A stretch of DNA of 38,323 bases from Acidobacteriota bacterium (GCA_029863825.1 JAOTUP010000001.1:1-38323), one strand, 5' to 3'; shown: positions 5,053-34,031, numbered from the stretch's first letter. Numbers and translations are program-made. The notes: generated by a model from the letters alone, not told the origin.

Positions 5053-5099
5053 CACTCGCTGCAATTGCCGGCGGGGGAAGCGGCGCGGGGACTGAATCG

Positions 5100-5795: not shown

Positions 5796-5796
5796 G

Positions 5797-6397: not shown

Positions 6398-6631
6398 ATG
6401 GAGTCTTACGCACCGTGCCCGAACTGCCGCGGCGGCAATCTCTATTCGACGCAGAAAGACGTCAGCGCTGGTGGTGGATACGCGCCCAACTATCTTCCCG
6501 GCCTGGGGGGCATGTTCGCAGCCGAGAAGTTCCGAGTCGTCGTGTGTGCAGACTGCGGCCTGACTCGCTTCTTCGCCAGGTCATCGGCGATGGAAGAACT
6601 GGCGAGCTCTTCGAAGTGGAAGCAAGTCTAG
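6398..6631 (+). CDS. small zinc-ribbon protein
   Basis: ATG 6398 is preceded by GGAAGGAG. CPNC....(42 aa)....CADC gives a two-knuckle Cys4 layout. 77 aa. Confidence 0.5.
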   Translation: MESYAPCPNCRGGNLYSTQKDVSAGGGYAPNYLPGLGGMFAAEKFRVVVCADCGLTRFFARSSAMEELASSSKWKQV

Positions 6632-6743
6632 ATCGCGATCTCCGAGCGTTTGGGGGCATGCCGCGGAAGAGGGCCGATGCCGGCTTTCGCCTCGCGCCAG
6701 GTCCCATGCCGACAACGGATAGTCGGAAGAGGAGAGAAGTGAA

Positions 6744-7280: not shown

Positions 7281-7407
7281 TGGTCGAAGCACGGACCGTG
7301 GACGCCGAGAAAAGTGACGAGATGACACACGCCGGTTCGACCGCTGTTCTCATTGACGGAGGCGGTCGGCAGCTACTCGATGGCAGAACCCTCGGCCGGG
7401 AGATGAT

Positions 7408-8175: not shown

Positions 8176-8360
8176 GTGTGTCCAGCGAACCGGAAGGAAA
8201 CGGGCTTCGCGACACAAGAGCTCGACGGACCCTCACCAGAAGCCCGACAGCAGACTGATTTCGGCCTTATGGGTGGCGCACTAGTGGTCTGTGGGTCACG
8301 ATTCCCCTGCTCGTCTGCGGGGCGAGAGAACCGGGATCTATACAATAAAAGTCTAGTTTC

Positions 8361-8726
8361 ATGCTGCCGCACATTCTGGCTGAACCGCTTTTTCTTCAGA
8401 TATGGGTCTTTTGGCTCATTGTCATCAATACGGCGTGCATATTCTTCTTGCGCCAGGTCGAGGCGCGCTGGGTGTTGGTGGCGTGGGTCGGCAACATTCT
8501 CTTCATGACGGCGCTCTTCGAGCTCAACGGCTTCAACCGCTTGCTCAGCCTGTCGCACGTTGTTTCGTGGACGCCACTGGTGATCTATCTCCACCGGCGA
8601 CGCGACTCGCTCTCCGGCGAACGACTCTTCGATGGCTGGGTGCGCACGCTCTTCGTCACCAATCTCATCTCGCTCGCCATCGACTATGTGGAAATTGTGC
8701 GTTATCTGCTGGGGGATCGAGGCTGA
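8361..8726 (+). CDS. small hypothetical membrane protein
   Basis: 121 aa with four hydrophobic segments. An AT-rich stretch (TATACAATAAAAG) lies upstream. Its stop overlaps the next ATG. Confidence 0.5.
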   Translation: MLPHILAEPLFLQIWVFWLIVINTACIFFLRQVEARWVLVAWVGNILFMTALFELNGFNRLLSLSHVVSWTPLVIYLHRRRDSLSGERLFDGWVRTLFVTNLISLAIDYVEIVRYLLGDRG

Positions 8727-9160
8727 TGCAACGGCGAATCCCCTTCGTCAAGGCGGTGATGACGCCATTCCCGTACTCGATAGAGGCCGGGGCGAGAGTG
8801 GAAGAGGCACGACTCCTGATGCACGAGCACGGCATCAGACACTTGCCCGTGGTCGAGCGTGAGAAGCTCATCGGGATCGTCAGCGATCGCGATCTACGCC
8901 TGGTGACCGAGCCGTCCTCAGGGCGAGTAGCAGATGAGGATCTCGCTATCCGAGACATCTGCGAGCGAGATGTCTTTGTCGTCGAGCTGACGGAGCGACT
9001 CGACGGCGTTCTCGATGAGATGCTGCGTCGACGCATCGGCTCGGCGATTGTCGTGAAGTCCGAGCGTGTCGTCGGGATCTTCACCGCCGTCGACGCTTGT
9101 CGCTTTCTGCGCCAGCTGCTCACCGACTTCTTTCCCACAGACGGCTCGCACGTGGCCTGA
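8726..9160 (+). CDS. CBS-domain pair protein
   Basis: ATG at codon 109 of ORF 8402..9160 (TGATG overlap). Two CBS repeats: HGIRHLPVVEREKLIGIVSDRDL and RIGSAIVVKSERVVGIFTAVD. Confidence 0.8.
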   Translation: MQRRIPFVKAVMTPFPYSIEAGARVEEARLLMHEHGIRHLPVVEREKLIGIVSDRDLRLVTEPSSGRVADEDLAIRDICERDVFVVELTERLDGVLDEMLRRRIGSAIVVKSERVVGIFTAVDACRFLRQLLTDFFPTDGSHVA

Positions 9161-9174
9161 GAGGCGAACGCGAA

Positions 9175-9864
9175 ATGACGACCAGGAGCCTTTCTCGACC
9201 CGAAGTCTCGGCGGACGCCCGGGCGCAGTTCATCCACCGTACGTACGGCCACCTGTTCGGGGCCATTCTCGTCTTTGTCGCTTTCGAGGCCGCGCTCTTC
9301 GGCTCGGGTATCGCCGACCGTATGGCGCGGGCGATGATGCAGGTGCCGTGGGGTCTGATTCTCGGAGCGTTCCTGTTGATCGCCTGGTTTGCGACGCGCC
9401 TTGCGCACCGCATGGAATCGCGCTCGGTGCAATACCTCGGTCTCGGGACCTACATCGTCGCCAAAGGTGTCATCTTCGTACCGCTGCTGTACCGCGCCGA
9501 GCGCGTGGCCGACGGTTTGATCAACCAGGCAGCGCAGGTCACACTGCTCGGCGCGCTCGGTTTGACAATCGTCGCCTTCTCGGTGAAGAACGACTTTTCG
9601 TCATTGCGCCCGTATCTTTACTGGGGCGGGACGGTGGCACTGATCCTGATCGTTGCGGCGCTGGTCTTCGGATTTCGACTCGGCACCTGGTTCAGCGTCG
9701 GCATGATCGCGCTGTCGGGAGGGTCGATCCTCTATGACACGGCCAAGATCGCTCGCCGCTACCGGGGCGATCAATACGTGGGTGCGGCGTTGGGTCTCTT
9801 CGCCTCGATCGGCATGATGTTCTGGTACGTCTTGCGCCTCTTTACTCGAGCGCAACGAGGCTGA
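9175..9864 (+). CDS. Bax inhibitor-1/YccA family membrane protein
   Basis: ATG at codon 27 of ORF 9097..9864. FIHRTYGHLFGAIL, seven hydrophobic segments and a charged C-terminus. Confidence 0.75.
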   Translation: MTTRSLSRPEVSADARAQFIHRTYGHLFGAILVFVAFEAALFGSGIADRMARAMMQVPWGLILGAFLLIAWFATRLAHRMESRSVQYLGLGTYIVAKGVIFVPLLYRAERVADGLINQAAQVTLLGALGLTIVAFSVKNDFSSLRPYLYWGGTVALILIVAALVFGFRLGTWFSVGMIALSGGSILYDTAKIARRYRGDQYVGAALGLFASIGMMFWYVLRLFTRAQRG

Positions 9865-9866
9865 GA

Positions 9867-10322
9867 GTGGTGGTCGGAGCGCGGGCAGAGATCGACGAGA
9901 TCGTGGAGCGCGAGACGCGCGCCTGGGACACTCAGGATCTGGATCTCTTGTTGACGGTCTTCCATCCCGACATGGTGTGGCCGTGGCCACCTCACAAGGA
10001 TGCCCATGATCCGTTGGAGTGGGTTCTCGAGTGGGGCCGATTCGACGAGACGCGCTGGCGAGCCGGGTGGAGCGATCTGTTCGCGACCCACGAGCTGGTC
10101 CACAATCGGAGACGAATTCTCAAGGTCGTCGTATCGGCGCAAAAGGACGGCGCCCTGGCGGTGGTAGACGTCGACACGTTGTGGCGTCACCGCGACGGTG
10201 GCGATTTCCACTGGCTGGGGCGAGCCGGGAAGATCTACTCGAAGGTCGCTGGCGAGTGGAAGATGATCGCGCAAACGGGACTTCTCGATTACTCGACGTT
10301 TGCACGACGACAAGAAGTCTGA
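9867..10322 (+). CDS. SnoaL/DUF4440-like (NTF2 fold) protein
   Basis: 151 aa. EIDEIVERETRAWDTQDLDLLLTVFHPDMVW..GEWKMIAQTG is the typical NTF2-like layout. Confidence 0.55.
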   Translation: MVVGARAEIDEIVERETRAWDTQDLDLLLTVFHPDMVWPWPPHKDAHDPLEWVLEWGRFDETRWRAGWSDLFATHELVHNRRRILKVVVSAQKDGALAVVDVDTLWRHRDGGDFHWLGRAGKIYSKVAGEWKMIAQTGLLDYSTFARRQEV

Positions 10323-10400
10323 GCCATCACGGCCGTTCGTTCGGGCGCCGATGGAAGATGAGATTCCCCATGGCTCCGGTCGGAACGTCGAGGCGGAGGG

Positions 10401-11060
10401 TCACCGAGGGACGTCGCCGAGGAGCTCCCCGGTATCGCTGAGAGCTGGATAGGGTGTGTCACGGCGTCGGCAGATGTCGGCGAGCTCGGGGTAGGACCAC
10501 TCGAAGAGCTTGCGGTCGTATAGCTCTTGGTCCAATCGTCGAGACGCATAGAGGCCGGCCGCTATGCGCTGCCGCTGCGCTTCGAAAAGGAGCACGGCTG
10601 CCGCCACCGAGACGTTGAGCGAGGTGACGAAACCGCTCATTGGAATCGATACGAGCTCGTCGGCAGCGACGAGCGTTTGCGGTGTGATTCCGTCTTTTTC
10701 CTGGCCGAGCAGAATGGCCGTCGGCTGGGTAAAGTCGACCTCCCGATAGTCTGTTGTGGTATCTCCCGGATGGGCGGCAAGAATGCGAAGGCCGTGCTGG
10801 CGCAGATGGTCGAGGCCAAGGCGTGCGCTCCTGTGAACGTGGACCTCAAGCCAGCGATCCGAGCCGCTGGAGCTGACGAGCGAGGTGCGCAATCTGCCGT
10901 GGGCGAACACGGCATGCGCTTCCAGCAGTCCGACTGCATCGGCGGTCCGCAAGATGGCGGCGAAGTTGTGCGGCTTGTGGACGTTCTCCAGCAGCACCGT
11001 GAGATCCGGCTGGCGGCGGTCGAGAACGTGACGGATGCGCTGGAATCTTTCGGGTGTCAT
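10401..11060 (-). CDS. trmH: SpoU-family tRNA (guanosine-2'-O)-methyltransferase
   Basis: Start taken at MTPERF (codon 9 of ORF 10401..11084). LLENVHKPHNFAAILRTADAVG, ILLGQEKDGI and SIPMSGFVTSLNVSVAAAVLLFE are present. Confidence 0.75.
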   Translation of the reverse strand: MTPERFQRIRHVLDRRQPDLTVLLENVHKPHNFAAILRTADAVGLLEAHAVFAHGRLRTSLVSSSGSDRWLEVHVHRSARLGLDHLRQHGLRILAAHPGDTTTDYREVDFTQPTAILLGQEKDGITPQTLVAADELVSIPMSGFVTSLNVSVAAAVLLFEAQRQRIAAGLYASRRLDQELYDRKLFEWSYPELADICRRRDTPYPALSDTGELLGDVPR

Positions 11061-11184
11061 GGGACGGGAAGTCGGCGCGTCCATGCTACCAATGTCGTCG
11101 GCGGCAGTCTGGTGATGCCCGGTGCGCGGTCGGCCGCGGGACTCCGCCGCAAGGGGCCTGGGGTCGAAGAGCTGATGGAGAAGA

Positions 11185-11211
11185 CCCCTGCGAAGGTTGA
11201 CTCCGCAGGGG
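11185..11211 (-). terminator. stem-loop downstream of the OMP gene (possible intrinsic terminator)
   Basis: On the minus strand: CCCCTGCG-gagtcaacctt-CGCAGGGG, a perfect 8-bp GC-rich stem 21 nt after the stop. It is followed by tcttctcc, which is only weakly U-rich. Confidence 0.4.
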
Positions 11212-11231
11212 TTGGGACGCTTGAGGAACGC

Positions 11232-11951
11232 TCAGAAACTGACCGAAAGGCCCGCTGAGAGCGTACGCCCGGACAGGTCGAGTTCGCCCAGTCCTTCGAA
11301 ATCGCTCCCGAGCTCGTCGTCGACCCGTTGCCAGCGACCTTCTGCGTAGACAGACCAGTTCGTCGCAATGGGCGCCTCGAGCCCGGCACGCCAATAGTAG
11401 CCGAGAGCGCCGCCCTCGTCTTCGAAGAAGTCATCGAAGATCTCGAAGTCGGCGGTTGTGAAGTCGATGAAGTCTCCGAACTCACGCAGGCGCCAGGCCC
11501 AGACTCCACCGCCGAGCCCGACGTAAGGAACCAGCGCGCGATCGCGTTGCGCCAGGTGCACCAGCAAGCCCAGCGTGAAGGAGCTGATGTCGAGCTCTGT
11601 CGTGTGCCTGATCGGAGCACCAAACTGATCCTCGAACCGCAAGTACTCCTGCCGCGCGGCGCCCTCATAGAACGAGCCGGAGAATGCAAGTCCCAGGCGA
11701 TCTCCGAGGAACCGCACCCATTCGATACCGATGGCGGCGTCATCGAAATCTCCACTGTCGCCGGTAAAATCGGCGGCCTTGTCGCTCCAATACTGGGAGT
11801 CGGCTTCCGGCTCGAAGGAGCCGAGGTCGAACCGAAAGATCTGGTCCTCGCCCCAGTGGCCGCGGGTGCCGCCACCGTTGGCAGCGACGGCGTGCGAGGC
11901 GAGAAGCAGCATGAGCACGGGAGCCAGCCACATGAGTTTTTTTCCGATCAT
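11232..11951 (-). CDS. outer-membrane beta-barrel protein
   Basis: Start at MIGKKLMW, preceded by AAGGAG. Signal peptide ends ...ASHAVA. Alternating-residue strands, with a C-terminal ...LSVSF ending in the terminal Phe typical of OMPs. Confidence 0.65.
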   Translation of the reverse strand: MIGKKLMWLAPVLMLLLASHAVAANGGGTRGHWGEDQIFRFDLGSFEPEADSQYWSDKAADFTGDSGDFDDAAIGIEWVRFLGDRLGLAFSGSFYEGAARQEYLRFEDQFGAPIRHTTELDISSFTLGLLVHLAQRDRALVPYVGLGGGVWAWRLREFGDFIDFTTADFEIFDDFFEDEGGALGYYWRAGLEAPIATNWSVYAEGRWQRVDDELGSDFEGLGELDLSGRTLSAGLSVSF

Positions 11952-17352: not shown

Positions 17353-19533
17353 ATGGTCGGCGATCCGACAAAGCCATCACGACAGCTCTTGATAGCGACG
17401 GTATTGGGCCTGGCTGCGATGTCAGTGCTCATCCTCCTGGCAATCGAACGCGGATCGATTGGGCGCGTTTCCGGCGATGAGGGTACCTACGTTGCGATGG
17501 CCGAGAGCCTGGCGCTCGATTTCGACCTCGAATTCCGGGAAGAAGACGAAGCCCGCGTTTCCGGCGCCCCAGAACCGGGTCGTAGGACGGTCATCCTGCA
17601 GCGAACGCAGCGCGGCATCTCTTACTCGAAACCCTTCGTGCCTGCCTTGGTTGCGGCGCCGTTCTTTGCGCTTGTCGGAGCACGCGGACTGATCGTTGCC
17701 AACGTGTTGGTGCTGGCTGCCGCTCTGGTCGCGCTGTGGCTCTATTTGAGACGCCTCGGTGGCAGCGGCGCATCGGCCTTGACGCTCGTCACCTTTGCCG
17801 CCAGCGGTTCGCTGTTGCCATATGTTGTGTGGCAGACGAGTGATCTCCTGCAGGCGTGCCTGGCGCTCACCGGCCTGACGCTGTGCCTCGGCCGTCTGCG
17901 CAAGCCGATCTCGGCGGATCGGAGCTCCGATCTTCTCGATCAAAACTGGTCGCTGTGGCTGGGCGCCGCACTTCTCGGCGTGCTCGTTGCCCTGCGGCCA
18001 CCCAACATTTTCATCGCCGGGATCGCACCGCTCGCCCTGATCGCCTCCGGCAGGCGACGCCACGGCGCCGGAGTAGCGACGGCAATGGTCCTCACTCTTC
18101 TTGCCGTCGGCGGCGTCGGGTTGCTCGTCTTCGACAGCGCCATGCCTTACAAAGCCGAGCGCGCGACTTTCAACTCCCAGACCGGCTACCCTGCCGGGGA
18201 TGACGTCGAGACGGTTTCGACTCAGTTTGAGGCCGGGCGCGCGACGTCGAGCCTGGGCGTTGTGCCGGATTGGAAACCCAGAGTCTCCGCCTACTCGTCT
18301 CTCTACTTCCTGATCGGGCGCCACACCGGGGCGCTGATCTATTTCCCGGCGCTTTTCTTTCTGTTGTGGACAGTCGTCCGTTCGCCTGATCGAACGAGCC
18401 TGTTGGTTCTGGGCGGCGTCATTGCCGCCAGCACCTTCTTTCTTGTGTGGTTACCGTTCAACTACTTCGGTGGAGGGAGCTGCATCGGGAATCGCTACTT
18501 TCTGGCGAGCTACGCGGCGCTGCCGCTGGCCCTTCGAAGGCCGCTGGGGCGATGGAGCCTGGTGGGCTGCTGGCTTCTCGCCGCGGTCGTCGCTTCCTCT
18601 GCAGTCACTTCCGAGCGAATAACGCCGATCGAGGGACGCACGAGTCAGAGTCACGCTCACGCCGGCATCTTTCGATGGCTTCCGTATGAAACGACAGCCT
18701 CAGATCTCGAAGGGAGTCGCGACCATTACTTCGGCAAGGACTTTGTTCGCACGGTCGATCCGTTCATTGGCGCCGGCGAGTGGATCTTCGAGCTGCAGAG
18801 CGACCGGCCGGCGGCCGAGATCGCGCTCGCCAACCTCGAGCGCGAGGAAGCGGTGCGCTTCTTGGTCCACTCTGCGGCCCCGAGCATCGAACTGGAGTAC
18901 TCGGACTACGGACAGAAGGTGTCCGTCGTGCTCGAGAAGCCGCTCGGTCTCAGAGGGGTTGTCGAACTCGCGCCAACACCACCGATTCGGTACCATCCGC
19001 TCTGGTTTCGCAACCTCTGGGACCATGGCAAGCCCTACTGGGTGCGCGTCTTCCGAGTCGGGCTGCGGTCCGTGGACGGCTTGCCGGCGGCCGCAACGAT
19101 TCGCTTCCTTGGACGCGAGAAGTTCCCACCGGACCTCTTCGAGCGGACCGTCCTGGCGGCGGAGCTGCCGGATTCGGTCGTGGCGGGTTCGGTCTCGAGA
19201 GTCACGATCCGCGCGCGTAATCAGAGCCGCGGCGCGTGGCGATCGGAGGGTCTGTTTCCCGTCTTCTTGAGCTACACGCTTGAGCCGCTGAAGAACGGCC
19301 GCAGTGAGGTAGAGGAAGGGCAACGGAATCCTCTGGGAGGTGCGATCAGGCCGACTGCGGAGCTTGCGCTACCGCTCGAGATTCGCTGGCCGTGGAAACC
19401 GGGCTCGTATCGGGTGAAAGTGGATCTGGTGGCCGAGGGCGTGGCTTGGTTCGAGAGCATGGTCGGCGCTCCGCTGGTGGAAGGCACTGTGAACGTCGTG
19501 GGCCAAGAGAGCGAGGAAGCCGGTGGCGCATGA
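17353..19533 (+). CDS. large polytopic membrane protein, putative GT-C (ArnT/PMT-like) glycosyltransferase with soluble C-terminal domain
   Basis: 726 aa. At least 10 hydrophobic helices in the first ~450 aa. A GDEGTYVAMAESLA loop follows helix 1, resembling the DE..Y first-loop motif of GT-C enzymes. The last ~270 aa are non-membrane. The CDS is certain; the function is tentative. Confidence 0.45.
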   Translation: MVGDPTKPSRQLLIATVLGLAAMSVLILLAIERGSIGRVSGDEGTYVAMAESLALDFDLEFREEDEARVSGAPEPGRRTVILQRTQRGISYSKPFVPALVAAPFFALVGARGLIVANVLVLAAALVALWLYLRRLGGSGASALTLVTFAASGSLLPYVVWQTSDLLQACLALTGLTLCLGRLRKPISADRSSDLLDQNWSLWLGAALLGVLVALRPPNIFIAGIAPLALIASGRRRHGAGVATAMVLTLLAVGGVGLLVFDSAMPYKAERATFNSQTGYPAGDDVETVSTQFEAGRATSSLGVVPDWKPRVSAYSSLYFLIGRHTGALIYFPALFFLLWTVVRSPDRTSLLVLGGVIAASTFFLVWLPFNYFGGGSCIGNRYFLASYAALPLALRRPLGRWSLVGCWLLAAVVASSAVTSERITPIEGRTSQSHAHAGIFRWLPYETTASDLEGSRDHYFGKDFVRTVDPFIGAGEWIFELQSDRPAAEIALANLEREEAVRFLVHSAAPSIELEYSDYGQKVSVVLEKPLGLRGVVELAPTPPIRYHPLWFRNLWDHGKPYWVRVFRVGLRSVDGLPAAATIRFLGREKFPPDLFERTVLAAELPDSVVAGSVSRVTIRARNQSRGAWRSEGLFPVFLSYTLEPLKNGRSEVEEGQRNPLGGAIRPTAELALPLEIRWPWKPGSYRVKVDLVAEGVAWFESMVGAPLVEGTVNVVGQESEEAGGA

Positions 19534-19572: not shown

Positions 19573-21483
19573 ATGGTGGGGGGTGACGTGTACGAAACGC
19601 TGATCTGGCTGGTGCCGATCTCGGTCGCTCTTGCCGGACTGTGGTGGCCGCGGGCCGGGCTCCTGGTCTTGGCGGCAACCTTGCCTCTTTTCGGAGCCCC
19701 GCCAGGCGGACCGTATCTTGGAGCTCTGGATGTCGCTGCCCTGGCTGCCATCGGTACCGGCTTGCGAGCGGGACGCAGCCGGCGCAGCTCGCTCGACGTC
19801 GGAGTACTGGCGGTTGTCGTCGTCACGCTGGCGGCGTTCTTTCCGCTTGCTTACAGGCCGCCGGACTGGTCACCCGGGACTCTCTTCAAGCTCATGACCA
19901 TGCTTCCGGGCGTCGAGAGCTGGTCGAGCCTCTATACATGGAGGGCTGTCGCGAACGTGCTGCTGGGAATCGGCCTCTATCTGTCCGTCAAGCGAGCGTT
20001 CGGACGCACGTCGCCGCTGGCATTGGGACGGGCTCTTGGTGTCGGACTGCTGGCGGTGCTGGGTCTCGGGTTCTTCGAGCTCGCAGGATGGATCGATCTC
20101 TCGGGCTATCGGCCGATAGGTTTGGCGATCTTCGACCAGCGATTTCATTCGCTCTTCTTTCACTCGGGATGGATGGCCGAGTTCGTAGTGCTGGCGACGC
20201 CGGTTGCCGTCGGGGCATGGGCGAGCGGGACACGCGCAAAACCGCGAGTTGCCGCAGCTCTGGCGTTTCTGGCACTGACGGCCGTTCTCCTCAGTGGGCA
20301 ACGGGGCGCCTGGTTTGCAGCCCTTTTTCAAGTGGTGATAGTGGCGGCCGTCCTGGGTCGCTCATTGCTTCACGGGCGGCGTCGCTGGCGTTTCGCGGCC
20401 GCTGGCGTGACGACGATGGCGGTCCTGGTGCTGGGCGTCGTGCTGGCGCGACCGGAGGTGGGTTCGTCGCTCGAAGAGCGGTTGGGAAACGCGACGAAGA
20501 ACCTCTCCAACCGGACGTTTGTCTGGAGAGCAGCGCTCGATATGGCCGGCGATCGCCCGCTCTTGGGCTGGGGAGCCGGGAGCTTTTCGCCGGTACTGGA
20601 TCTGGAAGTCCTGCCTGAAAGCTCCCAGGACTCGCGAGTTCCGGGCCGAGCGACGCTGGGACACCATCACGGCTGGCTCACGGCTCATAGCACGTACCTG
20701 ATGTTCCTGGCGGAACGTGGAGCTCTGGGGCTGGCCAGTCTTTTGTTGGTCGGGTGGCTCGCGGTGACGATCTCCGGGCGAGTCGTGCGTGACGACGCCT
20801 CGGCGTCGAGGGCTCTAGCTCTCGGACTTCTCATCAGTGCGGCGGGCTTTGCGATGTACGGAGTGGTTCAGTACCTCTTCTTCCCGCGGGCAAACGCCTT
20901 TCTCGTCTGGCTGCTCCTCGGCTCGGTGGCGACGCTCGACCCCGGTGTCACCGGACGCAAGGCGGTGCGGATCGGCCAAGCACTCATCGCGGCGGCGCTC
21001 ATCTTGCTGCCGTTGAGAGCCTTGGCGTGGGAACCGGCTCCGGCGCGGAGCGAGCAGAGCTTCGGCTTTCATCCCCCCGAGCACGGGGCGCAGAAGGCGA
21101 CGCATCAGTGGACCTCGGCGCGTCGCGCGGTCCGGCGTCTGGCGTGGGAGGATCAGGTTCTTCAGCTTGCGGTGGCCAACGGTCATCCGAAGGCCTCTGT
21201 CGAGCCGGTTCTGGTGGAAGTGCTGGTCGATGGAGCGGTGGTCAAGCAGTGTGTTGCCGGTGAGGGATGGCAGAAGCTGGGGATCTACCTGGGACCGCCG
21301 ACCAAAGACGCAGTGCTTCTCGAGATTGCGGTGAGCCGGACCTTCCGACCGTTCAGCGACTACCGGCGCTTCCCGGACCTTCCCGCGTCGCGCGATATTC
21401 GCCGACTCGGGATTGCCGTCGGCGAGATCTCCTGGACCAGCGCTCCGCAGACGATCGAGATTCCGGTGCCGAACTCGGAATGA
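19573..21483 (+). CDS. O-antigen ligase (Wzy_C) family membrane protein with C-terminal extension
   Basis: 636 aa and polytopic. SGQRGAWFA, RTFVWRAALDMAGDRPLLGWGAGSF and HSTYLMFLAERGALG form the Wzy_C block. A soluble tail of about 170 aa follows. Confidence 0.65.
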   Translation: MVGGDVYETLIWLVPISVALAGLWWPRAGLLVLAATLPLFGAPPGGPYLGALDVAALAAIGTGLRAGRSRRSSLDVGVLAVVVVTLAAFFPLAYRPPDWSPGTLFKLMTMLPGVESWSSLYTWRAVANVLLGIGLYLSVKRAFGRTSPLALGRALGVGLLAVLGLGFFELAGWIDLSGYRPIGLAIFDQRFHSLFFHSGWMAEFVVLATPVAVGAWASGTRAKPRVAAALAFLALTAVLLSGQRGAWFAALFQVVIVAAVLGRSLLHGRRRWRFAAAGVTTMAVLVLGVVLARPEVGSSLEERLGNATKNLSNRTFVWRAALDMAGDRPLLGWGAGSFSPVLDLEVLPESSQDSRVPGRATLGHHHGWLTAHSTYLMFLAERGALGLASLLLVGWLAVTISGRVVRDDASASRALALGLLISAAGFAMYGVVQYLFFPRANAFLVWLLLGSVATLDPGVTGRKAVRIGQALIAAALILLPLRALAWEPAPARSEQSFGFHPPEHGAQKATHQWTSARRAVRRLAWEDQVLQLAVANGHPKASVEPVLVEVLVDGAVVKQCVAGEGWQKLGIYLGPPTKDAVLLEIAVSRTFRPFSDYRRFPDLPASRDIRRLGIAVGEISWTSAPQTIEIPVPNSE

Positions 21484-26785: not shown

Positions 26786-28495
26786 TCAGTTGATATAGCC
26801 GAGCGCCTTGAGGTGCCGTCGCCTCACTTCGAGCTCCGCCGGAGTCAGGTCGTCCGCAGAGTCCACGTCTTCGACAGTTGGGGCAGGTGGTGTGTCTGCC
26901 GGCCGTATGGACGGATTGCTCCAGAAGGCGAACGCCTCGGTCGGAGTGTCGCTCTCCGCGCCGAGTTCGAGAGTGTCGACACACAGCTCGATCCACTGCA
27001 AGGCGAAGGAATCGAGAGCGAGAGTCTTTTCTTGCCATCTCCGGCCAGACAGATCGATGGTGTCTTCAAAGAGGCTCACCCAGTCCGTGGAAGCCTGAGG
27101 CCGAAGGCGCATGTGGAAACGCGCTGCGTATTCTGTACGCCCGGCGCTCGCTACGCGGCGCCGGTCGACACCGTAGGAGACCGTGAGCTGCGGTCGCAGC
27201 GGCAGCAGAAGCTCCCGGCAGTCGTTGTTGTCGACGAGGACCGTGCGCGTGGTCCGCTCCAGCATCTCCTCACGCAATGCGCCACGAGGCGCGAAGCCGT
27301 ACGTCCAGCGGTCGACGTGACGCTGATCGGGCCGAGGGCGTACCGGCATGGCATCTGGTCGGGGCAGAGCCGCTAATTGCGGACAGTGATCGAACGGATA
27401 CCGGCTGGGACGCACCGGATCGAAAGGCGGCACCCACTGCCATACGGTTTCTCCCTTGCGATTCACTTCGAAGGCGCGGCCACCACGCGAAGAGCCGATC
27501 AGGACGTTGCCGTTGACGAGAGGCTGCTCCACTCCCTGGGTCGGTGAATAGAAGCCGTCGGCCGTGAATTCCCAGACAAGAGAGCCTTGGGCGGGATCGA
27601 TCTCGAGAATCCGGCTGCGGCGGTACCGATAGGAGTTCCGATAGCCGTTGTCGAAGATCAGGATGTGGCCATGGCCAGGGTAATTCTGGGGAATAAGGAG
27701 TGCCTCGTGCTGCAGATCGAGATCCACGCCATACGACCAGACGACCTCTCCGGAGGTTCTGTCGAGAACGAAGATCTCGTTCAGGTTTCGGGCGCTGATG
27801 AGAAGGTTTCCCGGTCGAAAGCGCTCGTCGCCACCTCGGAACCGATCGTTGACAGGGATTTCCTGGAGAGAGTTGATGTGGGTCACATCGCCACGGTCGG
27901 CCTCGTATTCGTCGATGAACCGAGCGAGGTGCGTACCCGCCGACCATTTCCAGCGGATCTGCCCGTCGCTGTCGACCTCCCAGATCTCGTCAGTCGCGCT
28001 GCCGTTGGGCAGCACCGGAAAGAGCGTATTGCCATTTTCGAGCCGGATGACATCGTGATGCGGCAACCCGTCTTCGACCTCGAATCGCCAGGTGAGGTTC
28101 CCGGCCCAGTCGTATTCGACGATGGCGCGATCGAGCGCCAGGCCGAGAAGGGACCCATCAGTGAGAAGTCGGACGCGGGATTTGACTCGTGCCCCTGGCC
28201 ATGAGTGGACGATGCGTCCGTTCATGTCGATGAGTGTCGGTCGTCGGGCACCGTGAAGGACGAGAGTGTAACCGTTGTCCGCCTTCTCCGGATCGTAGGT
28301 CGTGACCCATGAGCGAGGATCGTCCGCGGCAAACTGCTGCTCGTCGGCCGAGTCGCCTGCCGACGCACCTGTTGTGTCGCGAGTTCTTGAGGGACCGCAG
28401 CAGAGGAGGGTGACGGCCGGCAGAGCGATGAGAAGAACGGAAATCCGGCCGCGGGCGAAGTGTAATGAAGCTGCGGACATCACGAGGACAACCAC
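26786..28495 (-). CDS. arylsulfotransferase (ASST)-like beta-propeller protein with extra C-terminal region
   Basis: 569 aa. Signal/lipoprotein-like N-terminus (..AVTLLCCG). HHDVIRLENGNTL, VTHINSL, NEIFVLDRTSGEVVWSYG and QHEALLIPQNYPGHGHILIFDNG match my memory of ASST-family propellers. About 180 further aa end ...LKALGYIN. Confidence 0.65.
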   Translation of the reverse strand: MVVLVMSAASLHFARGRISVLLIALPAVTLLCCGPSRTRDTTGASAGDSADEQQFAADDPRSWVTTYDPEKADNGYTLVLHGARRPTLIDMNGRIVHSWPGARVKSRVRLLTDGSLLGLALDRAIVEYDWAGNLTWRFEVEDGLPHHDVIRLENGNTLFPVLPNGSATDEIWEVDSDGQIRWKWSAGTHLARFIDEYEADRGDVTHINSLQEIPVNDRFRGGDERFRPGNLLISARNLNEIFVLDRTSGEVVWSYGVDLDLQHEALLIPQNYPGHGHILIFDNGYRNSYRYRRSRILEIDPAQGSLVWEFTADGFYSPTQGVEQPLVNGNVLIGSSRGGRAFEVNRKGETVWQWVPPFDPVRPSRYPFDHCPQLAALPRPDAMPVRPRPDQRHVDRWTYGFAPRGALREEMLERTTRTVLVDNNDCRELLLPLRPQLTVSYGVDRRRVASAGRTEYAARFHMRLRPQASTDWVSLFEDTIDLSGRRWQEKTLALDSFALQWIELCVDTLELGAESDTPTEAFAFWSNPSIRPADTPPAPTVEDVDSADDLTPAELEVRRRHLKALGYIN

Positions 28496-28500
28496 ACGAG

Positions 28501-29226
28501 CTACGGGAGGCGCCGGACTGTCGAGATCTCCACGGGCTCGAGCAGCATCTGTCCATCAGCCTCACGCCGGTGAATCGCCTTCACAACGTCCATCCCTTCG
28601 ACGACGCGCCCGAAAGCGGCAAACCCTTGACCATCGCTGTTGCGTGCGCCGGCGAAGTCGAGCTCGGGTTGGTCACCAACGCAGATAAAGAACTCCGACG
28701 ATGCGGTGCCCGGTTCGAGGCGTGCCATCGACAGCACGCCATCGAGGTGGTGAATGCCGGTGTCGCGAGTGGTTTCGTGCGCGATCGGGGGCGTCGATGA
28801 ATCGGCATCGAAGCCGAGACCGCCCTGAATGACCTCGATCTTGACCTCATTGTCGGGTTGGTTGTTCATCCGCACGACGCGGTAGAAGTGAGCTCCGGTG
28901 AAGAGCTCCTGATCCACATGGGTGAGAAAATTCGCCGCCGTGGCGGGTGCTGCGGTCTCGTAGATCTCGACGACGATGTCACCGAGATCGCTCCGCAAGA
29001 GCACGCGTGGATAAGTCTGTGCCGAGGTCGCGGCTGCGAGGTGCGTCACAGCAAAGAAAAGAGAGACGAGTACTGCAGCTCGCGGCGCCGGCCGTCCGAG
29101 ACGTCGAGAGGGCGCGGCGTTCACATGGCTTGGCGAGGGCAGATCGCCGCTCGTCGCAGCGTGCGGGCTGCGATTCTCAATCGAGATAACCGAGCGCCTT
29201 GAGACGATCGCGTTCTTTCTCGTCAA
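28501..29226 (-). CDS. secreted cyclophilin-type peptidyl-prolyl isomerase
   Basis: AANFLTHV, FYRVV, GVLSMAR, SEFFICVG and FGRVVEGMDVV. Signal peptide ends ...AATSA-Q. The ATG at 29226 overlaps the upstream gene by 50 nt. GTG 29124 (VNAAPSRR..) is a plausible alternative start. Confidence 0.8.
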   Translation of the reverse strand: MTRKNAIVSRRSVISIENRSPHAATSGDLPSPSHVNAAPSRRLGRPAPRAAVLVSLFFAVTHLAAATSAQTYPRVLLRSDLGDIVVEIYETAAPATAANFLTHVDQELFTGAHFYRVVRMNNQPDNEVKIEVIQGGLGFDADSSTPPIAHETTRDTGIHHLDGVLSMARLEPGTASSEFFICVGDQPELDFAGARNSDGQGFAAFGRVVEGMDVVKAIHRREADGQMLLEPVEISTVRRLP

Positions 29227-31399
29227 TGACTGCCTCTTCCTGGTCTTCGACTTTGGTCGGGTCGTTGTCGATCCACGATAGTACCTGCGAGCGCAACCAG
29301 TCGATCTCGATGTCCGGCTGTCCGGCCAGGTTGACCTGCTCCCGCGGGTCGCTGGCGAGGTCGAACACGTATTCGCCGTCCCGGGTGCGCCCGGTTCCTT
29401 CTCCCTGTCCCCACTGAGTGCCTCCGCGAGGAGCCCAAATGTACTTCAGATTGCCGGATCTGGCGAGGAAGATTCCGCCCTTGATGCTGGATGCGGCGAC
29501 GAATCGCACGTGCCCGGGGTCGACGAGTGACGTACACGACTCGATCTCGGGCCACAGCGACCGACCGTTCCAGGTCTCTGTGTCGGAATCTCCGAGGAGA
29601 GCCCGCAGCGTGTAGTGGATGTCGAGATGGTCACTTGGCGTGTCGAGCCGGCATGGCGAGAGTCGATTGGGCCACCAGAAGACTGCCGGGATATGGATTT
29701 GCTCTTCGTACAGCGTGTATCCGTGGAGCACGCCGCCGTGCTCGAAGAGCTCGTCGCCATGATCCGAGGTGGCTATGAACAGGGTTTCATCGGGCTCGTA
29801 CCGTGCTTCAAGCTCGCGCAAGAGCTCGGCGATGAGATCGTCGTTGTAGCGTACCGACGCGGCGTAGAGAGCGCGCAACCGCGCCCGATCTTCATCGGTC
29901 GCCTCCAGGCGACCTTGCTTGATGTCGCGAAGGATCGCCGTCGAGCCGCTGATGTTGGATTCGATGCCGGCCGTAAAGAGCTGCTCGAGTGAAGGTGGCG
30001 GTGCGTACGGGTTGTGGGGATGGAGCGTCTGGGCATAGATGAAGACCGGCTCCTCGGGAGAGAGGGCGTCGAGCCAGTCGAGCATCGCGCGGTGCACCTG
30101 CTCCGCGTTGTCGCTGTAGCCGGATGCCCCGAACCCGTGCGCGACGACCTCATCGGCGACGTGATCGAAGCCGCGATCGGTGCCGTACAGTGCCGACGCG
30201 AGGCCGTTCCCGGAAAACAGGCCAGTGCGGTACCCGGACTGCCTGAAACTCTCCGCCAACGTCAACTCTCCGCCAGGTTGCAGCTTCCAGCCGCCGTCGT
30301 AGCGAGGGGTACGGCCGAGAAACAGCGACTTGATAGAAGGGAAGGTATTCGGTGCGACCGAGTAGTGGTTCAACAGCGTCACACCGCCTTCGGCTAAACG
30401 GTCGAGGGTCGGGCTCACGCCCGGTGGTCCGCCGAGGTGACCCAGATGGTCTGCCCGCAGGGCGTCCATGACGTAGACGAGCACGAGTTTCGGTCGCCGT
30501 GACACTTGAGTTGCTGGCACTGGCAAGGCGATGGGTTGCACCAGTGTCGGACGTTGCCAGCGACCGGAGGGGCCGTCGCCAAAGGATGCAAACCGTAGCC
30601 GCACGAGACCTTCCCCGAGATCGACGCGAAGCGAACGGGTGCCACGGAGACGGTTCCAGAATCCCGGCCGCCAGCCGAAGATCTTCGTCGGATCGCTGCC
30701 CTGGCGCTCGATCCACAGCTCGAATCGCTGTTGGGGATGAGCTCCTGCGGGAGGCTCGAAGGACGTCTCGAACATGGTTCCGCTGTCAGTCATCAGGACA
30801 TAGTCAGCGAGTGAATAACCGGATTGGACGATGGACGAGTCGTCGGCCTCGACCTTGCCACCAGGCGCCACATGGCGAAAACCCGCGGTACGAACGGCGA
30901 TTTGCGTGTCGGCCGAGAGTTCGAGCTCGATAAGGAATCGTCCGAGCGGGAGATCCGTGGGCAGTTCGATTTCGAGAGGAAACGCAAGAGCCGTGCGGCC
31001 TGTCGAGCGTCCGCCGACAACGGCCTCTATCCAGGCATTCGAGGGAGACTTCAGAATCTCGCCATCGATGACCAAGCGGCGCGAGAGGTCGGAGATTCGG
31101 ACACCTTCGAGACGGGGCGACGGAGTGACAGAAACCAGGAGTACTTCACCCTCTCGCTTCCACGGCCACCAGCCACTGACGAAGCGATTCCCGTCTACAG
31201 CAGGGGGCGGCGCGACTTGTCGACTCTCGATCAGAATGTCGGGACGCCGGCCAGAGGATACGAGGGGTTCAACCACCGTACGCGCGGAGTCATTGTCACA
31301 CGCGGTGAACAGCACGATGAGCAGAGAGGCAACGAGCGTGTCACCTCTCCTCACGCATCGCCTCCACTCTGCCATCGAGATCGCATCACCTGATGTCAT
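29177..31399 (-). CDS. alkaline-phosphatase-superfamily 'sulfatase-like' lipoprotein with N-terminal ~300 aa extra domain
   Basis: Start moved to the ATG at codon 82 of ORF 29177..31642, which overlaps the upstream stop as ATGA. Lipobox-like LLIVLFTAC. Metal site VYVMDALRADHLG, NTFPSIKSLFLG, and a late TSDHGDELFEHG block. Ends ...LKALGYLD. Confidence 0.7.
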   Translation of the reverse strand: MTSGDAISMAEWRRCVRRGDTLVASLLIVLFTACDNDSARTVVEPLVSSGRRPDILIESRQVAPPPAVDGNRFVSGWWPWKREGEVLLVSVTPSPRLEGVRISDLSRRLVIDGEILKSPSNAWIEAVVGGRSTGRTALAFPLEIELPTDLPLGRFLIELELSADTQIAVRTAGFRHVAPGGKVEADDSSIVQSGYSLADYVLMTDSGTMFETSFEPPAGAHPQQRFELWIERQGSDPTKIFGWRPGFWNRLRGTRSLRVDLGEGLVRLRFASFGDGPSGRWQRPTLVQPIALPVPATQVSRRPKLVLVYVMDALRADHLGHLGGPPGVSPTLDRLAEGGVTLLNHYSVAPNTFPSIKSLFLGRTPRYDGGWKLQPGGELTLAESFRQSGYRTGLFSGNGLASALYGTDRGFDHVADEVVAHGFGASGYSDNAEQVHRAMLDWLDALSPEEPVFIYAQTLHPHNPYAPPPSLEQLFTAGIESNISGSTAILRDIKQGRLEATDEDRARLRALYAASVRYNDDLIAELLRELEARYEPDETLFIATSDHGDELFEHGGVLHGYTLYEEQIHIPAVFWWPNRLSPCRLDTPSDHLDIHYTLRALLGDSDTETWNGRSLWPEIESCTSLVDPGHVRFVAASSIKGGIFLARSGNLKYIWAPRGGTQWGQGEGTGRTRDGEYVFDLASDPREQVNLAGQPDIEIDWLRSQVLSWIDNDPTKVEDQEEAVIDEKERDRLKALGYLD

Positions 31400-33054
31400 T
31401 GCAGATAGCCGAGGGCCCGGAGTGCTTGCTCGGTGTCGGAAGTGGGTGATCGGGACCCGGGCTCGGCGACGAGAGTCCACCTCTTTTGCGCTAAATCCCC
31501 GGCTAAACGCTTGGTGAGCTCCGCGCGCTCTGAGGAGATATCGTGAGTAGCCGTCGCGTCCTTCGAGAGGTCGAAGAGCTCTGTCCGTCGCAAAGAGATG
31601 CCTCTGACCTTGAACGAAAGGCAGCGGCTGTCGTTGCCCCATCCGAGCCAGAGAGGAACATCGCAGCCACTGGTCGACAGGCGAACGCGGTGAGAAGAGC
31701 TGGTCGGCCCGAGTTGTAGACGCTTCGGCGTCCAGTCGGTTCCGACGATGAAGGCCTCGTCGTCTCTGCCGTCGATCGCCATCGTAATCTCTCGTGGCTC
31801 GCCAAAGCTGACCAGCTCGAGGTCCACGGTCGCTGCAGCGGTGTCGAAAACAGCCTCCTTGGCGACCCAGGTGCCGTCCGCTTCGGATAGACGCTCAGCC
31901 ACGACGTATTGAAGGAGCTGTCCGTCTTCGAGCGTAAACAGTGCCTGCTGCTGCTCCAGATCGACCATTTCGGCGAACGCTGGCACCGGCGTGAGCTTGC
32001 CCGAAGCCGAAAAGAGGGGCACCAGGCTGCGCCCGGAGATCGGCTCTGGAGAAGGGATTCCAGCGAGCTCGTAGAGGGTCGGCGCCACGTCGATCAGGCG
32101 AACCAGGTCGCCGACTCGGGTCCCGGAGAGCTTGGAGGGATGCAGAATGAGAAGCGGCACGCGCAGGGTCTCGGGGTAGACCTGCGAGTGGCTCAAGCGA
32201 CCGTGCTCGAAGAACTCCTCGCCGTGGTCGGAGGTGATGATAATGGTGACTTCGTCCCTGAGTCCCAGCAGATCGAGCTCGGCGAAAAAGCTCTCGAGGA
32301 CCGAATCGACGTAGCGCACCGTCCCGTCGTAGAGCTCGTGGTAGCGAGCAACGGTGTCGGCGGACACCTCTCGCCGGCGCATATTGATGTCGCGCAGGTA
32401 ACCACCCTCCGAGGGAGGAAGATCCGCGGAGTCGGTCGACAGATGCAGCGGGCGAAAAGGCTCAGGCGGGTCGTAAGGATCATGGATGGCGTAGGAGTGC
32501 AAGAAGAGGAAGAACCGCTCGTCCGATTCCAGAGAACGCAAGAAGTCGAGGCCGCGTTCGAAGGTCTTCTCGATGTCCGTGTCCGAACTGATTTGGCGAT
32601 CGACGAACTCGTCGAAACCGCGATTGAAGCCGAGGTCGGTGCAGACGTATCCTCCTTCAGTGTGGCCTGCGGTGCGAAAACCGTGACGGCGAAAGTGCTC
32701 CGGCAGCGTGTCGATCTCGAGTGACAACACACTGGACGGCACGTAGACGCCGTGCTCGCGCGGATAGAGGCCGGTGAAGATCGAAACGTGTGAAACGAGG
32801 GTTGAGGGATACTGAGCCAGCGCGTTCTCGAAAAGGACACCCCGGGACGCGAATTCATCGAGGAAAGGGCTGGTGTCGTGGGCGGCGCTGTAGGCTCCGA
32901 GGTGATCCGCACCGAGGGTGTCGAGCGAGATCAACACGTAGCCTCTGGTCGGCGGAAGGGAGATGCCCGGCGCGTCTTCGGCAGCGCGGGGAGAGCACGC
33001 GACGATGTGCAGGAAAAGCGGCAGAAGGAACAGTTTCTGGAGTGCGAAACGCAT
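31396..33054 (-). CDS. alkaline-phosphatase-superfamily 'sulfatase-like' lipoprotein
   Basis: 552 aa. Lipobox FLHIVAC, ISLDTLGADHLG, PSTLVSHVSIFTGLYP and TSDHGEEFFEHG. Ends ...LRALGYLQ. Confidence 0.75.
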   Translation of the reverse strand: MRFALQKLFLLPLFLHIVACSPRAAEDAPGISLPPTRGYVLISLDTLGADHLGAYSAAHDTSPFLDEFASRGVLFENALAQYPSTLVSHVSIFTGLYPREHGVYVPSSVLSLEIDTLPEHFRRHGFRTAGHTEGGYVCTDLGFNRGFDEFVDRQISSDTDIEKTFERGLDFLRSLESDERFFLFLHSYAIHDPYDPPEPFRPLHLSTDSADLPPSEGGYLRDINMRRREVSADTVARYHELYDGTVRYVDSVLESFFAELDLLGLRDEVTIIITSDHGEEFFEHGRLSHSQVYPETLRVPLLILHPSKLSGTRVGDLVRLIDVAPTLYELAGIPSPEPISGRSLVPLFSASGKLTPVPAFAEMVDLEQQQALFTLEDGQLLQYVVAERLSEADGTWVAKEAVFDTAAATVDLELVSFGEPREITMAIDGRDDEAFIVGTDWTPKRLQLGPTSSSHRVRLSTSGCDVPLWLGWGNDSRCLSFKVRGISLRRTELFDLSKDATATHDISSERAELTKRLAGDLAQKRWTLVAEPGSRSPTSDTEQALRALGYLQ

Positions 33055-33287
33055 GTTGATTGGAGCCTCGAGTCGGTGGTCATGCTACTACCGCGAGAGG
33101 GTGTGAAGCGACCGTCATCGACACGCACCGCGTCGCCATCGCATGAGGTGATTCCGACGCTACGGCGCCTGGGCGCGAGCCGTCGTCGAGACCGATATGT
33201 CCTGGGGACGCCGAACAACCTGCGAACTTCGGGAATCTCGGCTACGTAGTGGACTGTTGAAGAGGGGGCGAGAGGGCAGGTATCTCG

Positions 33288-34031
33288 ATGTTGGAAGACA
33301 GTTACACATGGAGCCGATTCGCCGGCGACAAGCCGAAGGCGCTTGGCGTTCATCTCGGACACGTCCCGTACATCGAGCCCGAGGACGAGAGCGGCAAGCG
33401 CCGAATGCGGCTTGCGATCGCTCTCGCCGCGATGTTCCATCTGGTCTTCTTCATCGTCCAGCTGCCTGCCGGCAGCAAGGTGCTGGAGGTCAGGTCCAAC
33501 CCGAGCAAGGTGTTCGTCGTGGAACAGGTCCGCTTCAAGGCGCCGCCGCCGGAGGCGCAGCAGCAGATTCCGAAGCAGAAAGAGAAGAAGCGAGTCATCC
33601 CCATCCCGGACCCGACGCCGGAAGAGCCGGAGCCGATTCTGGTCGACGAGGTGGAGGTGCCGGATCTCGAGTATCTGATCGGTGATGTTGTGTTCGGTAT
33701 TCCCGAAGGCCCTCCGGATCCGTACGGGTTGGGAGGCGAAGGCCCGGTTCGTCTCGGTTCCGACATCACGGCGCCTGTCAAGATTCACTATCCGTCGCCG
33801 AGATATACAGAGGAAGGCCGGCAGGCGCGGATCACCGGAGTCGTGATTCTCGAAGTGGTCATCGATCGCGAAGGAAACGTTGTCGGTGTCAAGGTACTCA
33901 AGGGTTTGCCGATGGGCCTCACCGAGTCGGCGGTCGAGACGGCAAGAGAGTGGAAGTTCAAGCCGGCCTTGCGCGGCGGCGAGCCGGTTGCTGTGTTCTT
34001 GAACCTGACAATCAGGTTTTCTTTGCAGTAG
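33288..34031 (+). CDS. TonB-family energy transducer
   Basis: N-terminal TM (LAIALAAMFHLVFFIV), a Pro/Glu/Lys-rich linker (PPPEAQQQIPKQKEKK..PDPTPEEPEP), and a TonB_C domain (ARITGVVILEVVIDREGNVVGVKVLKGL..AVETAREWKFKPA). Confidence 0.8.
   Translation: MLEDSYTWSRFAGDKPKALGVHLGHVPYIEPEDESGKRRMRLAIALAAMFHLVFFIVQLPAGSKVLEVRSNPSKVFVVEQVRFKAPPPEAQQQIPKQKEKKRVIPIPDPTPEEPEPILVDEVEVPDLEYLIGDVVFGIPEGPPDPYGLGGEGPVRLGSDITAPVKIHYPSPRYTEEGRQARITGVVILEVVIDREGNVVGVKVLKGLPMGLTESAVETAREWKFKPALRGGEPVAVFLNLTIRFSLQ

Follow-up and report, generated by a model that had tools for sequence, protein, structure and literature searches.

What might lead neighboring genes to encode proteins of unrelated folds that end in the same few residues? 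This question is raised by a 38,323-nucleotide stretch of DNA (GCA_029863825.1 JAOTUP010000001.1:1-38323; hereafter the window, meaning the whole stretch), a contig from a metagenome-assembled genome of an Acidobacteriota bacterium with relatives mostly among the Thermoanaerobaculia. Four co-directional open reading frames (ORFs) on its minus strand encode, in this order, sulfatase-like protein 2 (31396..33054), sulfatase-like protein 1 (29177..31399), a cyclophilin (28501..29226) and an ASST-like β-propeller protein (26786..28480), and the three large proteins finish with …RRRHLKALGYIN, …ERDRLKALGYLD and …EQALRALGYLQ. We find that this tail is a real, selected motif that is fixed at the C-terminus and common to unrelated folds. 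It spans ~15–20 residues and occurs on thousands of bacterial enzymes of at least six folds from more than 10 phyla, in the cytoplasm as well as in the envelope; a role as a helix for docking or assembly is more likely than one as a tag for export or sorting.

A common C-terminal tail in the window

Read on the minus strand, the tail of sulfatase-like protein 2 is TSDTEQALRALGYLQ (31399..31443), that of sulfatase-like protein 1 is IDEKERDRLKALGYLD (29180..29227) and that of the ASST-like protein is LTPAELEVRRRHLKALGYIN (26789..26848). All three come from the translations; AlphaFold2 (AF2) predicts a helix in the first (residues 539-547) and the third (residues 547-559). The pattern L[KR]ALGY[ILVM] matches three times in the full six-frame translation, every time a single residue ahead of the stop, against a chance expectation from residue frequencies of 0.00075 matches and with none in 300 shuffles. 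By BLAST, the sole stretch common to the ASST-like and the sulfatase-like proteins is their final 8–14 residues. With three terminal matches and nothing else in common by this comparison, the view of a first-pass annotation, namely that one tail is common to unrelated folds at the C-terminus, stands. In the window, the tail marks two Thr-nucleophile sulfatase-like lipoproteins and one ASST-like propeller lipoprotein, and it is carried by the family of each of these bearers wherever that family occurs.

A common C-terminal domain of the ASST-like protein and sulfatase-like protein 2 was considered and set aside as having too little support: beyond the final 8–14 residues found by BLAST, an hhalign comparison aimed at such a domain returned one weak match of 21 columns (probability 13%). 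In both proteins a β-sandwich precedes the tail (residues 402-527 of the ASST-like protein and 359-495 of sulfatase-like protein 2), and this sole profile-profile match between the two families, G..W…l.L……V.L, lies in the β-sandwich. The likeness may be due to a distant common origin of an accessory domain.

Conservation of the tail within families

The best 120 homologues of the ASST-like protein (45–61% identity) all end in L[TS]xEExxxxxxHL+ALGY[IVL]x with the G-Y in identical register, LGY being present in 111 of them and M or I replacing the L in the other 9. Likewise, the best 120 homologues of sulfatase-like protein 2 all end in L[ST]xExxxxL+ALGY[ILV]x, in identical register in 110/120 ([LMI]GY at position -5) and with a one-residue shift in 10/120. 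Across these 240 homologues (45–60% identity), the Gly and Tyr of the tail are invariant, Leu-8 and Leu-5 are almost so, and Tyr is replaced by Phe in none (0/240). The majority-residue frequency is 0.75–0.84 over the final 8 residues as against 0.39–0.50 over the preceding 30-residue linker; the tail is a conservation island that follows a variable acidic linker.

A wider search with the ASST-like protein against 1.84 billion cluster representatives (50% clustering), from which the best 150 were taken, found the tail in 65 of the 150. Nearly all representatives that match through the C-terminus of the query, and thus possess the β-sandwich, are tailed down to ~36% identity; the propeller-only relatives (~400 aa) have neither β-sandwich nor tail. 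Within this family the tail travels with the β-sandwich.

Distribution across enzymes, phyla and compartments

The wider census used a fixed-codon DNA pattern for L-[KRQ…]-A-L-G-Y-[ILVM]-x-stop against 185,579 species genomes and the JGI metagenomes; it samples CTC/CTC or CTG/CTG leucine codons only, with the stop forced two codons after the Tyr. It yielded at least 120 matches in the species genomes and at least 120 in the metagenomes. Of the 120 genome matches listed, ~110 close a long ORF and come after an acidic stretch. The organisms among the matches listed include several classes of Acidobacteriota, Binatia, Myxococcota and other "Deltaproteobacteria", Planctomycetota, Nitrospirae, Spirochaetes, Chloroflexi, Actinomycetes including Streptomyces, Verrucomicrobia and Eiseniibacteriota, the bearers as a whole spanning more than 10 phyla.

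Bearers were assigned to classes with their tails removed, for 142 tail-bearing ORFs in genome loci and the 120 metagenome matches listed; the counts and shares that follow apply to the matches listed. Sulfatase-like proteins dominate (104 in genome loci and 70 in metagenomes), followed by NPP-type enzymes (PF01663; 20 and 19) and by proteins with ribbon-helix-helix-like (RHH-like) features (1 and 7). Luciferase-like monooxygenases (3), ASST-like proteins (2) and an adenosine 5'-phosphosulfate (APS) kinase (1) come from genome loci, and a remainder of 11 and 24, mostly truncated, is unclassified. Pfam confirms the APS kinase (2e-61; the tail is a ~50-aa extension) and the Bac_luciferase and Phosphodiest bearers. 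Sulfatase-like proteins thus make up ~73% of the tail-bearing ORFs of the genome scan, a figure that agrees with the first-pass annotation's tentative mention of LGY motifs on such proteins, and together with NPP-type enzymes ~87%; the alkaline phosphatase (AP) superfamily accounts for ~85–90% of the classifiable bearers. In a set of 5.8 billion proteins, all those scored by a profile of the tail were short (34–70 aa) and, for the most part, fragments from the C-terminus.

The motif is not a compositional accident: in the sampled loci a relaxed form of it is rare inside proteins, with 22 internal matches versus ~140 terminal ORFs. Among the internal cases are sulfatase-like proteins of loci L082, L107 and L055 (…AEQLASLGYIATIEPG…DPKDG…), in which 120–360 aa more come after the motif. 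In some proteins, then, the C-terminus need not be free. Another locus, L037, has five tandem ORFs of ~460–510 aa at 1676-7385 on the plus strand; four are close paralogues, and all five have the ending …EELRALGYL[QRE] or …LEALGYVAD.

Tests of the tail as a sorting signal

The first-pass annotation had taken the tail for a sorting or recognition tag of extracytoplasmic proteins and the adjacent cyclophilin for their dedicated folding factor. A tag for sorting, secretion or surface anchoring would agree with the prediction that all three window bearers are lipoproteins, and with a rough hydropathy screen in which 51 sulfatase-type bearers elsewhere have a hydrophobic segment at the N-terminus. 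The N-termini of the three large proteins are lipobox-like (…HIVAC/S, …LFTAC/D and …TLLCC/G) and that of the cyclophilin is signal-peptide-like (AAATSAQ/T), matching the signal- or lipoprotein-type N-termini described earlier; the lipobox Cys is almost invariant in the alignments of the ASST-like and sulfatase-like protein 2 families (C20 in the latter).

Against such a tag stand the many bearers that lack a signal peptide. The NPP-type bearers start directly at their first catalytic strand (M..V.I.GLDGA; e.g., MKTVIIGLDGA), and the hydropathy screen finds no hydrophobic N-terminal segment in most of them; the APS kinase, luciferase-like and RHH-like bearers have no export signal either. Conversely, exported NPP-type paralogues encoded in the same loci are without the tail. 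On account of these signal-less bearers the sorting-tag reading fails. Further, the tail contains no transmembrane segment and no basic cluster, no known sorting-domain model matches it, and the neighborhood of cyclophilin and sulfatase-like genes is not conserved. The tail serves as a signal neither for export nor for sorting or anchoring, and we regard a function of that kind, with the cyclophilin in attendance, as exceedingly improbable.

Known C-terminal sorting signals resemble the tail in being short conserved elements at the extreme C-terminus of unrelated secreted enzymes; the tail differs from them in having no transmembrane helix, no basic tail, no domain of 70–100 aa and no terminal aromatic residue. 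Individually, PEP-CTERM, LPXTG, GlyGly-CTERM and MYXO-CTERM were rejected on the grounds that the tail is acidic and amphipathic, ends two residues past the G-Y and has no NCBIfam match. The C-terminal domain of the type IX secretion system (~70–100 aa, TIGR04183-type) matched neither the whole proteins nor the tails, and the β-signal of outer-membrane proteins was discarded in view of the final residue (N, D or Q) and of a tail that is helical in the AF2 models. Scans of Pfam and of NCBIfam (the latter at E-values up to 10) with the last 60 aa gave no match, and those with the whole proteins gave none to a sorting-signal family, in keeping with the exclusion of PEP-CTERM, LPXTG, GlyGly-CTERM and the type IX domain in the first-pass annotation.

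Neighborhood of the tail-bearing genes

The gene order, the overlap of start and stop codons and the gap of 233 bp (33055..33287) between the gene for sulfatase-like protein 2 and a divergent TonB-like gene (33288..34031, plus strand; Pfam TonB_C) are as had been described, on the evidence of ORFs and Pfam matches. The arrangement of the four genes is not conserved in the genomes compared. At the ASST-like loci of four other genomes there is neither a sulfatase-like nor a cyclophilin neighbor, nor a second tail-bearing ORF within 21 kb. In the most syntenic of these loci, L123, a transketolase gene, a 168-aa ORF and a TonB gene are followed by the ASST-like gene, two genes for short-chain dehydrogenases/reductases (SDRs) and a nucleoside transporter gene; in a comparison of its positions 6324-11656 with window 26786-34031, a peptidase S9 gene with two small ORFs replaces the genes for sulfatase-like proteins 2 and 1 and the cyclophilin. 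As this replaced segment sits between the TonB-like and ASST-like genes and holds the peptidase S9 gene and small ORFs, the three window genes represent an insertion or replacement.

The neighborhood not being kept in the four genomes, both the dedicated cyclophilin, proposed for folding of the secreted proteins, and the link to TonB are without comparative support. With this, the notion of a special secretion system in the window falls away, as does that of an operon dependent on the cyclophilin. Clustering of the neighborhoods in search of a partner brought out no recurrent non-enzyme partner, the recurrent genes being those for glycosyltransferases, ABC ATPases and SDRs.

Predicted structure of the tail and its possible role

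AF2 models built with the family alignments have a mean predicted local distance difference test (pLDDT) score of 89 for the ASST-like protein and 93 for sulfatase-like protein 2. In the former, the propeller (residues 59-361) is followed by the β-sandwich (402–527), a weak linker (pLDDT 61) and a helix at 547–559 (pLDDT 75–82). In the latter, the final 55 residues are ordered (pLDDT 87–97; 93 for residues 531-540 and 87 for 541-550), with the helix at 539–547. The limits of the helix as assigned by DSSP to the AF2 models agree in the two proteins: it begins right after the S/T and stops right before the L-G-Y (T546, 547–559 and L560-G561 in the ASST-like protein; 539–547 and L548-G549 in sulfatase-like protein 2). 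Under the textbook rules of helix capping, the tail as modeled would comprise a capping box (L-[ST]-x-E) and a Schellman C-cap with Leu at C3, Leu at Ccap, Gly at C' and Tyr at C''.

We propose that the tail forms an amphipathic α-helix that is capped, self-contained and portable and follows a variable acidic linker; the helical module would consist of the N-cap box L-[ST]-x-E, three to four helical turns, the C-cap L-x-x-L-G-Y and one aliphatic plus one polar residue. Its hydrophobic face (Leu-8, Leu-5, Tyr-3 and the aliphatic residue at -2) would dock in a groove on its own enzyme body or on a neighboring subunit, and this docking might fix the C-terminus and/or drive homo- or hetero-oligomerization. 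We tentatively favor this role as a clasp or oligomerization helix, at somewhat short of an even chance; the motif, its conservation, its range over folds and compartments and the predicted limits of the helix are shown here, and the docking or oligomerization and the surface contacted are what we infer. That the last 55 residues of sulfatase-like protein 2 are predicted to be ordered suggests docking rather than a free peptide, and the presence of at least two tail-bearing ORFs within 8 kb in 21 of 109 loci would fit hetero-assembly. Support also comes from the occurrence of the tail on signal-less and exported proteins alike, i.e., its independence of compartment, from the C-terminal continuation that is tolerated in loci L082, L107 and L055, and from the tail on RHH-like proteins.

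Known systems offer parallels. The C-terminal arms of AP-superfamily enzymes (2vqr, 2w8s, 6g5z and 4upi) extend past the catalytic domain as the tail does, and such arms oligomerize the tetrameric phosphonate monoester hydrolases and choline sulfatase; they are longer, however, and without LGY, and the tail profile matches none of them. Similarly, the RHH repressor Mnt has a C-terminal extension past its DNA-binding domain, a helix through which it tetramerizes.

Several considerations weigh against a clasp or oligomerization helix. The ASST-like tail is predicted with only moderate confidence, and its linker with less (pLDDT 75–82 and 61, as above). Pure hydrophobic packing does not obviously explain a Tyr that is never Phe, nor why nearly all bearers have the motif 1–2 residues from a free C-terminus. 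Docking in cis of one helix on six folds (e.g., AP, propeller with sandwich, P-loop kinase, TIM barrel and RHH) is implausible; one helix on unrelated folds favors a trans partner or self-association over cis packing. Finally, much of the clustering of tails is tandem paralogy, as with the five copies in L037.

The same portability across at least six folds invites a different explanation, in which the tail acts in trans as a short linear motif whose free C-terminal helix recruits its bearers to a common helical-groove partner (TPR-, MIT- or HEAT-like). We consider such a motif, working in the manner of MIM1 helices or EEVD tails, unlikely. Position near a free C-terminus and the acidic linker ahead of it agree with this, as does the co-location of bearers from different families: ASST-like with sulfatase-like proteins in the window, and APS kinase with an NPP-type enzyme in locus L026. 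Docking motifs such as MIM1 of ESCRT-III (bound by MIT domains), EEVD of Hsp70/90 (bound by TPR domains) and PTS1 have, like the tail, a C-terminal acidic stretch and then an amphipathic helix. The MIM1 consensus, (D/E)xxLxxRLxxL(K/R), lies at the C-terminus and has an MIT-domain partner; the [VIL]xxRLxxL(G) spacing of the tail partly resembles it, although MIM1 ends in K/R and the tail in G-Y-aliphatic-polar, and a profile of the RHH tails matched the Did2 MIM1 peptide (3ggz_E) at E = 1.2, which is weak and not significant. No MIT- or TPR-type partner turned up, though no search was aimed at one, and the neighborhoods hold no recurrent candidate partner gene. Moreover, one partner cannot serve cytoplasmic proteins and lipoproteins both, and the predicted order of the tail in sulfatase-like protein 2 fits poorly with a free recruiting helix.

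Comparison with known structures bears on yet another explanation. No structure of the AP superfamily or of an ASST in the PDB matches the tail profile; the matches, weak and non-significant, were single helices or helix ends within folded domains, namely the C-terminus of Era (ALRSLGYVDDL), TamA POTRA1, a HEAT-like repeat and the final helix of L7/L12, and they agree with the clasp or oligomerization helix proposed above. Era (…ALRSLGYVDDL) and CysD (…KLRALGYM), both cytoplasmic, have nearly the same L+xLGY[VM] 1–4 residues from the C-terminus; there the ending is the last helix of the protein's own family, with no evident module behind an acidic linker, and homology to the tail is unproven. 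Such LxxLGY-like stretches in Era, TamA POTRA1 and a HEAT-like repeat protein, an internal L..LGY.T motif in the sulfatases of loci L039 and L097, and the preponderance of the AP superfamily would be expected of a convergent or generic helix terminator with no common function, vertically inherited in the AP superfamily and copied or re-evolved elsewhere. We judge this improbable: the Tyr is invariant and the distance to the C-terminus fixed in families as unlike as propellers and RHH proteins, the ASST-like family keeps the tail to ~36% identity, and the chance expectation is negligible. The tail is apparently undescribed: Pfam and NCBIfam have no model of it, the PDB holds no structure that covers it, and the literature searched has no paper that treats it or contains its motif strings.

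If the tail is an assembly or docking helix, its recognition would help to annotate and model a very large, functionally uncharacterized clade of Thr-nucleophile proteins that are probably mislabeled as sulfatases, and it could serve as a natural tag for the engineering of complexes.

Sulfatase-like and ASST-like bearers

The assignment of the sulfatase-like proteins to the sulfatase/AP-superfamily fold follows from Pfam (PF00884 at 1e-42) and Foldseek (TM-scores of 0.56–0.62 to S1 sulfatases), with a secondary Pfam match to Phosphodiest (1.5e-17). The structural neighbors of sulfatase-like protein 2 are the phosphonate monoester hydrolases 2vqr and 2w8s, the choline sulfatase 6g5z and SpAS1 (4upi); solved sulfatases align to residues ~30–380 of it only. 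Its segment P-S-T85-L-V-S-H aligns to V-[C/A]-G-P-S-R of 4upi, and sulfatase-like protein 1 has T-F-P-S-I at the corresponding motif; the formylglycine motif C/S-x-P-x-R is absent from both. A Thr nucleophile followed by ..TG.YP..HG is present in the sequence (STLVSHVSIFTGLYPREHG), and in an alignment of 62 homologues of sulfatase-like protein 2 (A5), D45, T85, D276 and H284 are invariant and H277 almost so; the Thr and the conserved Asp and His of the metal site accord with Thr-nucleophile AP-superfamily enzymes.

With a Thr at the formylglycine position and no C/S-x-P-x-R, identity as formylglycine (S1) sulfatases was rejected for both proteins: the catalytic fold is like that of S1 sulfatases, but Thr replaces the Cys/Ser and the Pro and Arg of CxPxR are missing. 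The pattern recurs elsewhere, with T-x-P-[SA]-x in 52/56 tail-bearing sulfatase-like ORFs and CxPxR in 0/56. A Thr nucleophile is typical of phosphoryl-transfer enzymes of the AP superfamily of the NPP, LtaS and EptA types. The Thr makes the label "sulfatase" doubtful; judging by their motifs, the tail-bearing proteins so annotated are probably not formylglycine sulfatases and form a particular Thr-type clade, whose pattern the window proteins follow.

The ASST-like protein scores 61.8 and 55.2 bits against PF05935 and PF14269 (cut-offs 24.2 and 27), forms a propeller in the AF2 model and has invariant His141, His142, His201 and His258 in its alignment (A4). The closest structures are those of the Cpz4 sulfotransferase (9kf4 and 9kf6), with which it has the catalytic fold in common. 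The solved relatives, S1 sulfatases and ASSTs alike, are without the LGY tail of the window proteins.

Links to sulfate activation

Some of the signal-less bearers are encoded near genes of sulfate activation. The RHH-like tail proteins (60–79 aa; alignment A6) weakly match NikR in its RHH domain (E ~0.25–0.44) and Pfam RHH_1 (E = 0.009). Their genes lie directly upstream of the ATP sulfurylase gene, sat, in loci L085 (4674-4916, then 4931-6082, then 7098-, plus strand), L133, L159 (3523-3939, then 4007-5140) and L233 (10409-10176, minus strand, then 10155-9118, 9068-7671 and 7656-7210), and near cysD in L140 and L239; in three of the four former loci sat is followed by a gene for an NPP-type enzyme, and L233 also has cysC. 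The arrangement suggests an undescribed regulator of, or partner in, sulfate activation, and the tail on them beside sat or cysD offers a handle on the regulation of this process in uncultured lineages.

In locus L026, the APS kinase (3400-4026, minus strand) has a ~50-aa C-terminal extension ending in YSEEDEEEVRRRLEALGYV, and an NPP-type enzyme encoded 1.5 kb away (261-1913, minus strand) ends in YNEGEEAQLRERLRALGYIE, so that two folds in one cluster have the same tail variant. ORFs for CysD (sulfate adenylyltransferase subunit 2; L239 708-1439, L140 162-896 and L080 6796-7536, minus strand) end in …MQKLRALGYM or …MEKLRALGYM, with almost the same motif one residue from the C-terminus; a solved homologue is 1zun_A.

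The association with sulfate activation keeps alive the notion of a recognition or modification code among sulfate-handling proteins. In one form, the invariant Tyr would be modified, by O-sulfation or phosphorylation, or would act as an arm that carries sulfuryl groups, and would link the bearers that handle sulfate. Compatible with this are the lack of any Tyr-to-Phe change in the 240 homologues, the acidic residues upstream of the Tyr, the position of RHH-tail genes directly upstream of sat or near cysD in 6/8 loci, the tailed APS kinase of L026, the KLRALGYM ends of the CysD ORFs and the established activity of ASSTs, which transfer sulfuryl groups between phenols. Yet the exported sulfatase-like bearers have no such link: genes for sulfate activation were found in only one sulfatase-type locus, L115, and the association therefore concerns the cytoplasmic tail variant. 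The Thr nucleophile of the sulfatase-like bearers, for its part, indicates phosphoryl rather than sulfuryl chemistry, and the position of the Tyr also fits ordinary packing in a helix C-cap. We hold a modified or sulfuryl-carrying Tyr to be very unlikely.

In a broader form, the tail would be either a trans recognition helix or a carrier of Tyr modification (e.g., O-sulfation) that ties linked enzymes together across compartments, an idea to which we accord a low probability. The corresponding code, which seems to us no less improbable, would take in the APS kinase, CysD-type ends, NPP-type enzymes in sat/cysC operons and RHH-like proteins in the cytoplasm, and the sulfatase-like and ASST-like lipoproteins in the envelope. 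Were either recognition in trans or Tyr modification to prove true, the tail would represent a previously unrecognized assembly or regulatory code.

Genes of the window

Pfam assigns Sulfatase (PF00884) twice, Pro_isomerase, Arylsulfotrans (PF05935) with Arylsulfotran_2 (PF14269), and TonB_C to the genes discussed. The ORF of sulfatase-like protein 2, an AP-superfamily lipoprotein of 552 aa with Thr85 at the nucleophile position, matches Sulfatase at 2.3e-43, and its product is 100% identical to P0121. Sulfatase-like protein 1, likewise an AP-superfamily lipoprotein, has 740 aa when read from the ATG at 31399, which lies inside the CAATGA that holds the stop codon of the upstream gene for sulfatase-like protein 2; a start at 31354, favored by the gene caller, gives 725 aa. 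It matches Sulfatase at 8e-42 over residues 305-603 and is 31% identical to sulfatase-like protein 2 over the catalytic core.

The cyclophilin-type peptidyl-prolyl isomerase (Pro_isomerase, 7.6e-29) has no tail. A TTG start at 29226 would produce an overlap of 50 nt with the 3' end of the gene for sulfatase-like protein 1 (29177-29226), tail codons included; a downstream start ahead of the signal-peptide-like segment is equally possible. The ASST-like ORF is open to 28495, and the deposited protein, to which P0001 is 100% identical, begins at the ATG at 28480, which gives a lipoprotein of 564 aa with the propeller and the C-terminal β-sandwich. Elsewhere in the window, on the plus strand, a 726-aa ORF with no Pfam match (17353-19533) lies directly upstream of a gene for a Wzy_C (O-antigen-ligase-like) membrane protein (19573-21483).

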